From: a virus
UHGV virus genome: UHGV-0048443
DNA length: 19,110 nt
Direction: 5' to 3' (one strand)
The translations under genes and the position numbers were made by a program. Each line of letters begins with the position of its first letter. Position 1 is the stretch's first letter. Shown one piece after another: positions 10,434-14,828 of this stretch. Below the pieces are notes generated by a model. The model was not told where the DNA came from and ran no database searches. It worked only from the letters and a program-made list of their open reading frames with translations.

Positions 10434-11249
10434 ATGACTACTTTTACCGACAAAGAACTGATTAAAGAAATCAAAGAGCGCATAGGCAGCCTGGACGTTC
10501 GAGACAATATTGAGCGCCGGTCGTATGAAATTGCACTGGCATCGCTGGAACGCGAACAGATTCGCCACGAGCATGCCAAATGGTCTGACTCCACATTTGG
10601 CTGCGTTGGCCCCATTGGTCCACTGAAACACCTCTCAAAAGAGGCACTGGAAGCCGCAGCCGAACCAGACGATCTTAGCGAGTGGGCTGATATGCAGTTT
10701 CTGTTGTGGGATGCACAGCGCCGTGCTGGCATCAGCGATGCTGAAATTAACGTTGCTATGGAAGATAAATTGAAGATCAACATGGAGCGCCAGTGGCCTG
10801 AGCCAAAAGATGGTGAGCCTCGCTTGCACATTAAAGAACCCGGCAACTCTCCGGTAATTCCGGATGGTTTATCCACGGTATGCGCTGAGGCTTATCAGGT
10901 TGTAGGAGTTATGGCAGATGCGCTTGGTGTATTCGGTGATGCAGCAGTACAGAAAGTTCTGGATAACCTGTCACAGCAAAAACTTGTTCACAGAGATGTG
11001 CTGCCGTTCTCGCTTCCGGTAACTCCGGATGGTTGGATAAGCTGTAGTGATCGAATGCCTGAAAAGGGCCAGAACGTGCTTATTTCGGTGAATTTCGATA
11101 GCTCTCTGGTTGAACCGCTAATATGCTCCGCACGCTATACCGGAAGCACCTTTCGGCGCGGAGATGCAACGATTAAGCCGGGTAATGGTATTGAGCAAGC
11201 AACTCACTGGATGCCGCTACCGGAACCGCCGCAGGAGGTGAATCAATGA
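10434..11249 (+). CDS. Two-domain prophage protein (271 aa); C-terminal region resembles the DUF551 family, N-terminal region possibly DUF550-like
   Basis: C-terminal GWISCSDRMPEKGQNVLI...WMPLPEPP pattern recalled from DUF551 proteins; domain names are from memory and unverified. Confidence 0.7.
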   Translation: MTTFTDKELIKEIKERIGSLDVRDNIERRSYEIALASLEREQIRHEHAKWSDSTFGCVGPIGPLKHLSKEALEAAAEPDDLSEWADMQFLLWDAQRRAGISDAEINVAMEDKLKINMERQWPEPKDGEPRLHIKEPGNSPVIPDGLSTVCAEAYQVVGVMADALGVFGDAAVQKVLDNLSQQKLVHRDVLPFSLPVTPDGWISCSDRMPEKGQNVLISVNFDSSLVEPLICSARYTGSTFRRGDATIKPGNGIEQATHWMPLPEPPQEVNQ

Positions 11250-11329: not shown

Positions 11330-11489
11330 GGTATTGAAAAACGCCCACACACATAAGTTGGGCACCTGAGTTGCGGGGATAGGGAGTTAGTTAAATAGTT
11401 ATACAACAATACCTGATTTTGTATTGAAGCAAGGAAGAGGTTGCCACATATTGAATCATGCACGTGTACGTCAAATGCGGGAGGTCATC

Positions 11490-11579
11490 GTGCTGGTTCT
11501 GAAATGTGCGCTGGCTATTGCGGCTGTAATGGCAATTTATTGTCTTGTTATTGTTCTTATGGATCACCTTTCTGATTGA
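11490..11579 (+). CDS. Candidate small hydrophobic peptide (29 aa from GTG; 34 aa from in-frame ATG at 11475): LVLKCALAIAAVMAIYCLVIVLMDHLSD
   Basis: Hand-translated; GGGAGG SD 5 nt before GTG 11490; single hydrophobic helix; candidate promoter TTGAAG-17-CATATT at 11424-11452. Confidence 0.3.
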   Translation: MLVLKCALAIAAVMAIYCLVIVLMDHLSD

Positions 11580-11733
11580 TTTTATATTGGCGAGGTGACG
11601 AGAGTTAAGTAGAATTGCTGCGGGTGCTTGAGGCTATCTGCCTCGGGCATGAACAGCAACGGCAGATAGATAAAAGCCCCAGTTAACATTACGCGTCCTG
11701 CAAGACGCTTAACATTAATCTGAGGCCCAATCT

Positions 11734-11931
11734 ATGCTTCACAAACGTAGGTTAGCCTCTTACGAGCCGAAAGGCAAGGAGAAGCAGGCTATGAAGCAGC
11801 AAAAGGCGATGTTAATCGCCCTGATCGTCATCTGTTTAACCGTCATAGTGACGGCACTGGTAACGAGGAAAGACCTCTGCGAGGTACGAATCCGAACCGG
11901 CCAGACGGAGGTCGCTGTCTTCACAGCTTAA
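11734..11931 (+). CDS. Mok-like reading frame: in-frame N-terminal extension of hok (65 aa)
   Basis: ORF MLHKRRLASYEPKGKEKQA-MKQQK...; layout parallels chromosomal mok/hok pairs as I recall them. Confidence 0.45.
   Translation: MLHKRRLASYEPKGKEKQAMKQQKAMLIALIVICLTVIVTALVTRKDLCEVRIRTGQTEVAVFTA
11791..11931 (+). CDS. hok: Hok-family type I toxin (46 aa), HokD/RelF-like
   Basis: MKQQKAMLIALIVICLTVIVTALVTRKDLCEVRIRTGQTEVAVFTA matches HokD over its length from memory; AAGGAG SD 9 nt upstream of ATG 11791. Confidence 0.8.
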   Translation: MKQQKAMLIALIVICLTVIVTALVTRKDLCEVRIRTGQTEVAVFTA

Positions 11932-12014
11932 GAACCTGAGGAGTAAGAGACCAGGCGGGGGAGAAATCCCTCGCCACCTCTGATGTGTCAGGCATCCTCA
12001 ATGCACCCACACTT

Positions 12015-12040
12015 AACCCGCTTCGGCGGGTTTTTTGTTG
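12015..12040 (+). terminator. Rho-independent terminator after hok (aacccgc-ttcg-gcgggtt + TTTTTT)
   Basis: GC stem with tetraloop followed by a T-run, 85 nt after the hok stop. Confidence 0.6.
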
Positions 12041-12182: not shown

Positions 12183-12434
12183 GTGGATATAACCTTTTGT
12201 ACTTATAAACCTGGAGGCATCGTGGAAAAAATAAAGAAACTATTTAGTAGCAAATACGCAGTCATACGTCGTGATGACCTGTCAGTTATAGTCGAAATGG
12301 ATTACTTCCCTGAAACCCCAAAATCAATGATGTATCGTAATGGTCGAAAGGCAATTTTTTTACCGATGAGGGTAAGTGACATTATGGGAAATGATAAACT
12401 GCTGGATGAATTGCGAGTCAGAGCATCCTGTTAG
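12183..12434 (+). CDS. rem: Rem-like small prophage protein (83 aa from GTG 12183; 70 aa from GTG 12222)
   Basis: Position immediately after hok and the 83-aa length match the hokD-rem arrangement of Qin; GTG 12222 has the better SD (GGAGG). Preceded by a long AT-rich region. Confidence 0.5.
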   Translation: MDITFCTYKPGGIVEKIKKLFSSKYAVIRRDDLSVIVEMDYFPETPKSMMYRNGRKAIFLPMRVSDIMGNDKLLDELRVRASC

Positions 12435-13946: not shown

Positions 13947-13972
13947 CTCAATCTGTTATCCGGGGCTATATT
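13943..13972 (+). promoter_or_regulatory. Candidate late promoter (PR'-like): TTGACT - 18 bp - TATATT
   Basis: Near-consensus -35 overlapping the Q stop codon and a -10-like hexamer; lambda PR' has the same -35 hexamer and position relative to Q. Confidence 0.5.
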
Positions 13973-14035
13973 CCTCACGCGCCAGCAAAATCTGGCGTCG
14001 GGATTGGCGTCCTGGATAGAGACCGCGACAGATAC

Positions 14036-14059
14036 ACGCCGCGAGCGTGTTTTTTATTG
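14036..14059 (+). terminator. Candidate tR'-like terminator (cacgc-cgcga-gcgtg + TTTTTTATT)
   Basis: Short GC stem followed by a T-run, about 65 nt downstream of the predicted start site. Confidence 0.4.
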
Positions 14060-14216
14060 TCGTATGCGCGCGCACATCTGAATTATGGTGGGCTGTGTGG
14101 GGGCGGAGAGATCCGCGCCGGTCGGTTTCCCGGTTACGCCAACCCTGCACAGTTCACCACCAGACGATTGGCGTCGTCGGTGGTGAGTTATTAAGAAACC
14201 ACCAGAGGGCGTCATT

Positions 14217-14828
14217 ATGACAACTCAAATTTCTGTTGAAACTCTTTCCCCGATCACCCATAACCAGATTCCTGTTATTACCACCGAACTTTTAGCGCAG
14301 CTTTACGGCACTGAGCCGGTGCGTATTCGCCAGAATCATCATGAGAACAAAGTACGCTTCGTTGAAGGGAAACACTTTTTCAAAGTTGTTGGTAATGACC
14401 TTAAAGAATTGCGGGTAGCTTTAAACTACTCACAAAATTTGCGGGTTACTTTAAGTAACTCACAAAATTTGCAACCATCTTTAAGAGGGTTGCAAATTTC
14501 CCCGAAAGCCCGCTCCCTCATCCTCTGGACAGAACGCGGAGCAGCCCGTCATGCCAAAATGCTCGAAACCGATCAGGCGTGGGATGTGTTCGAAAAGCTG
14601 GAAGACTGCTATTTCAGTCAAAAGGATCCGTCAACGCCAGTTTCATGCCAGAAAAGTTACGACACGCGAGTTCTCTGTTATCAGCAAGGCGGTGTCACTG
14701 TTTCCACAATTCAGTTGCGGGATGATGATATTGTTATTTCCCTTGAGTCATGGCTGGAACTGGCGAGAGCCAATGGTTGGTTTGTTGTTCGCAGAGATAA
14801 ACTGGTGGAAAGGCTGATGCAGCTTTAA
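14217..14828 (+). CDS. ORF6N/KilA-N-type domain protein (antirepressor-like), 203 aa
   Basis: N-terminal pattern IPVITTELLAQLYGTEPVRIRQNHHENKVRFVEGKHFFKV and later ARHAKMLETDQAWDVFEKLED are typical of ORF6N-domain proteins; GAGGG SD before ATG. Confidence 0.75.
   Translation: MTTQISVETLSPITHNQIPVITTELLAQLYGTEPVRIRQNHHENKVRFVEGKHFFKVVGNDLKELRVALNYSQNLRVTLSNSQNLQPSLRGLQISPKARSLILWTERGAARHAKMLETDQAWDVFEKLEDCYFSQKDPSTPVSCQKSYDTRVLCYQQGGVTVSTIQLRDDDIVISLESWLELARANGWFVVRRDKLVERLMQL

Follow-up and report, generated by a model that had tools for sequence, protein, structure and literature searches.

A complete hok/mok/sok type I toxin-antitoxin locus with a private nonsense mutation in hok in a Rac-like lambdoid prophage of Escherichia coli

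The plasmid-borne hok/sok (parB) locus of R1 is the paradigm of type I toxin-antitoxin (TA) systems and acts in post-segregational killing. Closure of the mRNA by pairing between its tac and fbi elements is the defining trait of hok mRNAs. Prophages are enriched in hok genes (bioRxiv 10.1101/2025.08.07.668861), and one such system, hokW-mokW-sokW of the Stx2 phage Sp5/VT2-Sakai/933W (AP000422), has been characterised in detail. HokW is toxic, and sokW, whose RNA has been detected, neutralises it when expressed from its own promoter (Takada et al. 2021, PMC8621323). The neutralisation is lost on mutation of the TAACCT -10 element, the promoter-less sokW construct (primer YO-421) being altered in AGGTTA, the complement of TAACCT, and the protection is partly dependent on RNase III and Hfq (PMC8621323). 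Treatment with mitomycin C leads to loss of sokW and appearance of HokW, a response that requires RecA; the Sp5 locus speeds lysis and doubles phage release, and its deletion halves release (PMC8621323). In the Qin prophage of E. coli K-12, the gene hokD (relF) has relE directly upstream and lacks a hok promoter, tac, mok and sok.

The sequence analysed here (the window) is a stretch of 19,110 nt from the virus genome UHGV-0048443, and positions 11580-12040 of it are a complete hok/mok/sok type I TA locus. A Hok/Gef open reading frame (ORF), a structured leader, a tac-fbi pair, an upstream mok and a predicted antisense Sok with its putative promoter were all found. The best overall explanation is very probably a lambdoid-prophage TA locus of the hokD/hokW-mokW-sokW type in which the toxin is truncated by a private stop codon. 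The type of locus is already known, having been annotated and experimentally characterised, and is not new. The sole feature particular to the window is the nonsense mutation, which falls at the tyrosine codon edited by TadA. The discovery value is correspondingly small: this is the best-studied type I TA family, the sequence itself is annotated in RefSeq and the homologue hokW-sokW has been characterised.

The 801 bases round the locus are 100% identical to the chromosomes of E. coli P4 and FP4, both canine isolates, and the region finds a match in 4773 of 5426 complete E. coli genomes. Transcript ends, synthesis of Sok and any toxicity are predictions for the P4 copy. The P4 prophage is lambdoid and Rac-like, and the locus occupies its early-right (nin-like) part; the genes run in the order recT, recE, kil, a repressor pair, ydaT, replication genes, the hok locus, then genes for DUF1367, DUF1364 and DUF1133 proteins, followed by holin, lysozyme, terminase and head genes. 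The RefSeq annotation (PGAP) of strain P4 places a 141-nt 'hokD, type I toxin-antitoxin system toxin' (WP_136757414.1) at this position. The Rfam family RF01794 'sok' matches 11622-11796 on the plus strand over its full model (1-157) with 107.6 bits, against a gathering score of 59. As matched, RF01794 ends at the hok AUG, so the model describes the hok-sense leader and not Sok itself. The small upstream ORF at 11490-11579 has no match in Pfam, PHROGs or NCBIfam, and the downstream ORF at 12222-12434 belongs to PHROG 1813, of unknown function. The first-pass annotation, made from the sequence by itself, had placed the locus before rem; this position was not borne out, as a BLASTP comparison of the downstream ORF with K-12 Rem gave no similarity. 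The coordinates of the features are collected in Table 1.

Table 1. Features of the hok/mok/sok locus in window coordinates
Feature	Coordinates	Strand	Basis and details
hok mRNA promoter	11587..11615	+	-35 TTGGCG 11587-11592, 17-nt spacer, -10 TAGAAT 11610-11615; promoter scan, 9/12 matches
Full-length hok mRNA (~417 nt), predicted	11622..12038	+	From the predicted promoter to the terminator
tac (translational activator), 5' end, GGGUGCUUGAGG	11622..11633	+	Pairs with 11996-12008 in the full-length MFE structure
Leader hairpin, 9-bp inverted repeat CUAUCUGCC / GGCAGAUAG	11634..11669 (arms 11634-11642, 11661-11669)	+	First helix of the RF01794 alignment
Sok antisense RNA (71 nt), predicted	11672..11742	-	Coordinates transferred from the sokW misc_RNA of AP000422
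mok initiation region and Sok target hairpin	11722..11753	+	SD GAGG 11722-11725, AUG 11734-11736, stem 11729-11736 / 11746-11753
mok frame	11734..11931	+	In frame with hok, 19 codons upstream; 65 codons here
Sok promoter, putative	11749..11777	-	-35 TTGCCT 11777-11772, 17-nt spacer, -10 TAACCT 11754-11749
hok Shine-Dalgarno (SD) AAGGAG	11776..11781	+	9 nt before the hok AUG; read from the sequence
hok (hokD/hokW-type) ORF	11791..11931	+	46 codons and TAA; Pfam HOK_GEF, PGAP hokD
Private nonsense codon TAA (ancestral TAC, Tyr47)	11929..11931	+	C-to-A at 11931
fbi (fold-back inhibition) element CCUCAAUGCACCC	11996..12008	+	Complementary to tac, with one bulged U
Intrinsic hok terminator	12015..12038	+	Terminator scan; 7-bp stem (12015-12032), 5 GC pairs, TTCG loop, T tract TTTTGTTGCG

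The hok promoter, whose TAGAAT element is invariant across six full-length relatives, places the predicted mRNA start about 7 nt downstream. This position, 11622, is also the beginning of the Rfam model match and agrees by alignment with the 5' end of R1-type hok mRNA. The 417-nt transcript, which is homologous along its whole length to the hokW mRNA of VT2-Sakai and others, folds with a minimum free energy (MFE) of -171.8 kcal/mol (z = -7.42 versus shuffles) and with its 5' end paired to its 3' end. The first-pass annotation had suggested folding this transcript in search of tac/fbi-like 5'-3' pairing, which is indeed present in the MFE structure as a tac-fbi helix of 12 pairs with one bulge. 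The tac element is conserved with the 5' end of R1-type hok, and fbi is kept in the relatives and in K-12 hokD. Two further elements of the transcript had been proposed and were recovered, namely a terminator belonging to the locus at 12015-12040, which the terminator scan resolves into the stem followed by TTTTGTTGCG, and a 9-bp inverted repeat in the leader. The repeat is perfect (CTATCTGCC/GGCAGATAG) and lies within a pair of 20-nt arms that are 75% complementary, and the 5' arm of the leader hairpin overlaps an alternative partner of tac at 11640-11650. In each of three computed truncations lacking the 3' end, 11624-11634 forms pairs with 11640-11650. By calculation, neither the mok nor the hok start site becomes clearly more accessible in the 3'-truncated form, MFE folds of 400 nt being only indicative. 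The predicted refolding of tac onto 11640-11650 would agree with the known refolding pathway of hok mRNAs.

On the opposite strand, the promoter-like element TTGCCT-17-TAACCT occurs once in the window, where none is expected (200 shuffles). Among the 117 related copies and the window, the -10 hexamer of Sok was parsed as TAACCT in 88 and as TAATCT in 21. A generic sigma-70 promoter scan did not call the element, because its TAACCT matches only three of the six consensus positions. The assignment as the Sok promoter is instead supported by conservation and by the published mutagenesis of the homologue, and it is on these grounds that the element is taken as a putative promoter. The start of an antisense RNA had been predicted near 11742, and this position coincides with the 5' end of sokW of VT2-Sakai after mapping onto the window. 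The predicted Sok RNA (-29.2 kcal/mol, z = -5.2) begins with a single-stranded tail of 14 nt, GUGAAGCAUAGAUU, which can pair with the region of the mok start; a long hairpin and a U tail follow. The locus thus encodes in cis a candidate Sok RNA that has a promoter of its own, an unpaired 5' tail and a terminator hairpin, which by analogy with sokW would be transcribed.

The Hok ORF had been described as HokD/RelF-like, and the database matches agree. Pfam HOK_GEF (PF01848) aligns residues 6-46 with profile positions 1-41 of 42 at 79.4 bits (cut-off 22, E 1.5e-22), the protein matches PHROG 251 'MokW-like host killing' (E 1.7e-29), and PGAP calls hokD. The hok SD is invariant in all relatives, including K-12 hokD. 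Upstream, the proposed in-frame Mok-like extension from 11734 is present as an ORF of 65 amino acids; its ATG has GAGG 8 nt upstream and occupies the same start column in the relatives and in the R1-type locus. The length of 65 codons is a result of the premature stop. The target hairpin of Sok is present in the MFE structure, and the mok initiation region that includes it contains the hypervariable segment 11727-11751 described below. An in-frame mok was considered as an unusual trait and rejected as such: mokW is annotated in frame likewise in AP000422 and Rac-SA53, mokW and hokW of VT2-Sakai share their stop, and mok is in frame with hok in 95 of 117 relatives.

Of the known systems, the locus resembles hokW-mokW-sokW of VT2-Sakai with 93.6% DNA identity over 419 nt. 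Both are prophage-borne and have the same order and spacing of hok promoter, tac, 71-nt Sok, in-frame mok 19 codons upstream, hok and fbi, and the same -35 and -10 hexamers of Sok. When VT2-Sakai is mapped onto the window, sokW falls at 11672-11742 on the minus strand, mokW begins at 11734 and hokW at 11791. The two loci differ in the length of the toxin (46 amino acids owing to Y47* in the window, 51 in HokW), in its C-terminus (FVDYESEK in HokW, FTAYEPEE in window-type hok) and in the allele of the Sok 5' tail and mok codons 2-5. They also differ in location, the window locus lying in the nin-like early region upstream of the DUF1367/DUF1364/DUF1133 genes and the Sp5 locus near the right end of its prophage. 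On the 3' side of fbi VT2-Sakai diverges and has no alignment to the hairpin at 12015-12032, which is shared by the window and K-12 hokD.

R1 hok/sok is homologous element by element at only ~73% column identity, and the Hok proteins are ~44% identical (PMC8621323). The R1-type alignment matches the window at the 5' end (GCTTGAGGCT.TCTGCCTC), in the mok AUG column, at the Sok -10 (AGG.TAGCCTCTTAC), at the Sok -35 with the hok SD (GCAAGGAGAAG) and at the tyrosine codon (GCTTACGAA). In both, the mRNA is closed by tac and fbi and the 5' tail of Sok is unpaired. In R1, mok begins 58 nt upstream and out of frame (numbering of PMC9841398), whereas in the window it begins 57 nt upstream and in frame, and the Sok -10 is TATCCT in R1 and TAACCT in the window.

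The comparison with K-12 gives a different picture. The hok SD, ORF, 3' untranslated region, fbi and terminator of Qin hokD are nearly identical in DNA sequence to those of the window, and the ORF differs only at 11931, K-12 hokD encoding the full 51 amino acids with the TadA-edited TACG codon. Upstream of the hok SD the alignment breaks; the window has the hok promoter, tac, mok and sok that K-12 lacks, and no relBE genes were found upstream of hok among its ORFs and annotations. The core of the first-pass annotation is supported, and each element that it listed for the locus was found where it had been placed: hok and mok stand alone, have an antisense Sok promoter, a leader hairpin and a terminator belonging to them, and lack relBE genes upstream, unlike the relBE-hokD arrangement of Qin. 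The further view that this is a differently regulated arrangement fails as a claim of novelty, the arrangement having long been annotated as hokW/mokW/sokW. The mok/Sok leader is present in 117 of 120 IMG/VR contigs selected by the conserved beginning of this hok, so the standalone locus is the ordinary state and the K-12 arrangement a truncated derivative. On these sequence comparisons, the full hok/mok/sok is taken as the canonical ancestral arrangement and the leaderless K-12 relBE-hokD as the exception. The locus can serve as a worked example that the normal setting of prophage hokD-type genes is full hok/mok/sok and not the relBE-hokD of K-12.

The first-pass annotation had overlooked the truncation of the Hok ORF. 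The hok ORF ends 15 nt early, encoding 46 instead of 51 amino acids; the ancestral stop is at 11944-11946, and every relative reads TAC at the codon, followed by GAA CCT GAG GAG TAA. Position 11931 is C in 114 of 114 unique relatives, and the only other private bases of the window are 11656 and 11765. The 41-mer centred on the changed base occurs with TAA in two of the 5426 E. coli genomes, P4 and FP4, and with TAC in 4307 of them (7813 places). All 117 complete phage copies encode 51 amino acids with TACG at the codon. The window reads TAAG at 11929-11932, which destroys both the tyrosine codon and the TACG motif of TadA editing, and hok here is accordingly outside the TadA-edited hok genes (hokC/D/E, 'position 46' Tyr-to-Cys). 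The residues YEPEE are missing from Hok and from the predicted in-frame Mok-Hok product alike. An effect of the mutation through mRNA structure was considered and rejected on prediction: base 11931 is unpaired in the predicted fold, and the TAA and TAC alleles have the same MFE and structure. The effect is thus on the protein.

Published work on the tyrosine bears on what this effect may be. TadA edits TACG by A-to-I conversion in hokC, hokD and hokE, changing Tyr to Cys (6% in K-12 hokD), and in edited HokB Cys46 is required for toxicity through a disulfide with Cys29 (PMC5630033, PMC12214031). R1 Hok changed at the equivalent residue (Y48N) no longer kills when expressed at its native level, and suppressors were recovered at 18 of the 20 R1 hok codons that are one substitution from a stop (PMC9841398). 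A search of the literature on the toxicity of C-terminally truncated HokD gave nothing decisive. By analogy with these homologues, it seems rather likely that the truncation abolishes or strongly weakens toxicity. Because of Y47*, the toxicity of the window copy is doubtful, and the toxin gene is probably disarmed while the regulatory RNA apparatus looks intact. Since the promoter, tac, fbi, mok start, hok SD and Sok promoter are all conserved, the change to a stop looks recent. The natural Y47* allele could also provide a ready-made test of whether the C-terminal tail of HokD, or its edited cysteine, is needed for toxicity.

The opposite reading of the stop, as a neutral or merely attenuating polymorphism in a fully functional TA locus whose 46-residue Hok is still toxic, is considered somewhat unlikely. 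Only five of 51 residues are lost, the Pfam domain is matched at 41 of its 42 positions, and the transmembrane helix and Cys30 are retained. Alanine changes at several conserved residues of R1 Hok, tested singly and including E49A, moreover still kill on overexpression (bioRxiv 10.1101/2025.08.07.668861). The lost tyrosine is nevertheless the last conserved Pfam position, and the R1 results with Y48N at native expression and with the suppressor codons count against this reading. The intact regulatory elements are as expected of a toxin still needing control, but they are equally expected if the mutation is simply recent. The allele is found in none of the 117 complete phage copies and in one lineage among the 5426 E. 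coli genomes, a rarity typical of a loss-of-function mutation of recent origin.

That the stop is a sequencing or assembly error in a gene really encoding the 51-residue HokD is highly improbable. A single-base difference confined to one lineage could arise in this way, but the complete assemblies of P4 and FP4, deposited separately, both carry the stop, as does the window; finished assemblies rarely have substitution errors, and the private substitutions at 11656 and 11765 show that the copy has diverged in its own right. A negligible probability is given to a decayed relBE-hokD (relBEF) remnant lacking regulatory activity of its own, which the first-pass annotation had named as the reading that would overturn its proposal. 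The near identity of the hok ORF, 3' untranslated region and terminator to K-12 hokD and the truncation of the ORF would suit such a remnant. Upstream of the hok SD, however, the alignment is with hokW-type leaders and not with relE, the promoter, tac, mok and Sok promoter are present in conserved form, and no relBE-like sequence lies between 11250 and 11620. The remnant is refuted by the alignment with K-12 and the six full-length relatives together with the leader count of 117 in 120 related phage contigs.

For the preferred reading, a hok/mok/sok locus with a truncated toxin, a mechanism can be proposed from the predicted folds and from the R1 hok/sok and Sp5 hokW-sokW systems. The promoter at 11587-11615 would be constitutive and produce a stable mRNA of ~417 nt, in which tac pairs with fbi as in the computed fold. 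By homology with R1 and Sp5, this closed mRNA would be neither translated nor bound by Sok. Slow trimming from the 3' end would remove fbi, and the 5' end would then refold onto 11640-11650, as it does in silico, which by homology would expose the mok initiation region and the target hairpin. The convergent TTGCCT-17-TAACCT promoter would meanwhile make the unstable 71-nt Sok from 11742 to 11672, whose 14-nt tail would pair with the mok start, block mok translation and lead to cleavage by RNase III, as shown for sokW of Sp5. Translation of hok, presumably coupled to that of mok, would be blocked too. On loss of Sok, at prophage induction or on loss of the element, mok and hok would be translated, and Hok, as a small membrane toxin, would be expected to depolarise the inner membrane.

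As a separate observation, the variability among the relatives is concentrated in 11727-11751, a segment that comprises the Sok 5' tail, mok codons 2-5 and the start of the Sok promoter. Pairwise diversity is 0.28 in this segment, compared with 0.03-0.07 in other untranslated parts and 0.038 at the four-fold degenerate sites of hok codons 21-51; these comparisons with ORF and leader are partly biased, as conserved hok sequence was the basis for selecting the copies, and limited by the structural constraint that also acts on hok synonymous sites. Among pairs with identical 156-nt hok ORFs the diversity of the segment stays at 0.27. The 117 copies carry 20 segment alleles, that of the window being present in five of them, and a hairpin whose 5' arm holds the mok AUG is retained by most alleles. 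Three of the only four available pairs of copies from the same genome differ in their Sok-tail allele, a sample too small to set against the 89% of random pairs that differ. A literature search on hypervariability of the Sok tail found no paper describing it. The hypervariable tail, together with the variable mok frame described below, bears on the number of hok/sok copies that can coexist in a cell without cross-talk.

One quite unlikely and tentative interpretation is that 11727-11751 is a specificity cassette under diversifying selection and that the window copy is an antitoxin-only 'immunity' locus of a rare allele. At least 20 versions of the segment accompany near-identical prophage hok genes, and in most of them compensatory changes preserve the target hairpin. 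Under this interpretation each Sok would silence only its own hok mRNA, and prophages, whether co-resident or incoming, would not be cross-neutralised. The window copy, with its toxin knocked out and Sok retained, would act, if at all, against phages of the same allele. Analogous specificity is reportedly known for duplicated zor-orz loci.

Small indels in the same segment shift mok among three states. In the 117 copies, mok is in frame with hok and 57 nt upstream in 95, is a 19-codon ORF beginning 56 nt upstream with a TGA overlapping the hok ATG in 18, and is in the +1 frame as in R1, 58 nt upstream, in three. A copy on an IncFII plasmid that encodes the R1 Hok protein has mok 57 nt upstream, compared with the 58 nt published for R1. 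The variable frame fits the published conclusion that mok need be translated only as far as the hok start (PMC9841398).

The segment 11727-11751, which comprises the free 5' tail of the predicted minus-strand antisense RNA Sok and codons 2-5 of mok, is hypervariable between hokD/hokW loci that are otherwise almost the same, as seen in the window and in the homologous segment of its relatives. Pairwise diversity in this segment is 0.28; hok has 0.038 at its four-fold sites, and the remaining parts of the UTR have 0.03-0.07, a comparison partly biased by the selection of copies through conserved hok sequence. A total of 20 alleles of the segment are present among the 117 related phage contigs with a mok/Sok leader, and the target hairpin is retained in most of these alleles.

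In the interval corresponding to 11734-11793 of the window, the reading frame of mok also varies between close relatives. Among the related phage contigs, mok is in frame with hok in 95 copies, forms a 19-codon frame ending in a TGA that overlaps with the ATG of hok (ATGA) in 18 copies and lies in the +1 frame, as in plasmid R1, in 3 copies. The mok-hok spacing in the R1-type IncFII plasmid copy is the in-frame 57 nt, whereas published R1 numbering gives 58 nt (PMC9841398).

The Rfam model RF01794 ('sok antitoxin') matches 11622-11796 on the plus strand, which is the hok-sense strand, and the 3' limit of its consensus is the hok AUG. As matched in the window, RF01794 is a model of the hok mRNA leader and not of the antisense RNA.

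Upstream of hok, an unannotated small ORF encodes the hydrophobic peptide VLVLKCALAIAAVMAIYCLVIVLMDHLSD and stops 8 nt upstream of the -35 element of hok. Its product has no match in Pfam, PHROGs or NCBIfam. The region 11400-11580 is found upstream of hok in 25 of the 120 related contigs, and changes in the ORF are mostly conservative among the copies with a readable frame. Downstream of hok, the gene at 12222-12434 (+) had been taken for rem in the first-pass annotation; this assignment is ruled out by a BLASTP comparison with K-12 Rem, which finds no similarity. The gene product falls into PHROG 1813, a family of unknown function.

Small ORF and Rfam matches in the window
Feature	Coordinates	Strand	Source or remark
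Unannotated ORF, 29 codons	11490-11579	+	GTG start; GGAGG 5 nt upstream
c4-a1b1	13966-14018	+	Rfam
isrK	13979-14055	+	Rfam
C4 antisense RNA	14081-14164	+	Rfam

Elsewhere in the window, the three consecutive Rfam matches at 13966-14164 (+) all exceed the gathering score. An ORF6N-domain (antirepressor-like) gene (14217-14828) lies immediately downstream, and together they look like a P1-type C4/ant or IsrK/anti-Q module. At 10434-11249 (+), the window has a single unbroken ORF of 271 codons, whereas identical DNA in RefSeq is annotated as a partial pseudogene and a distinct CDS with a dATP/dGTP pyrophosphohydrolase domain.
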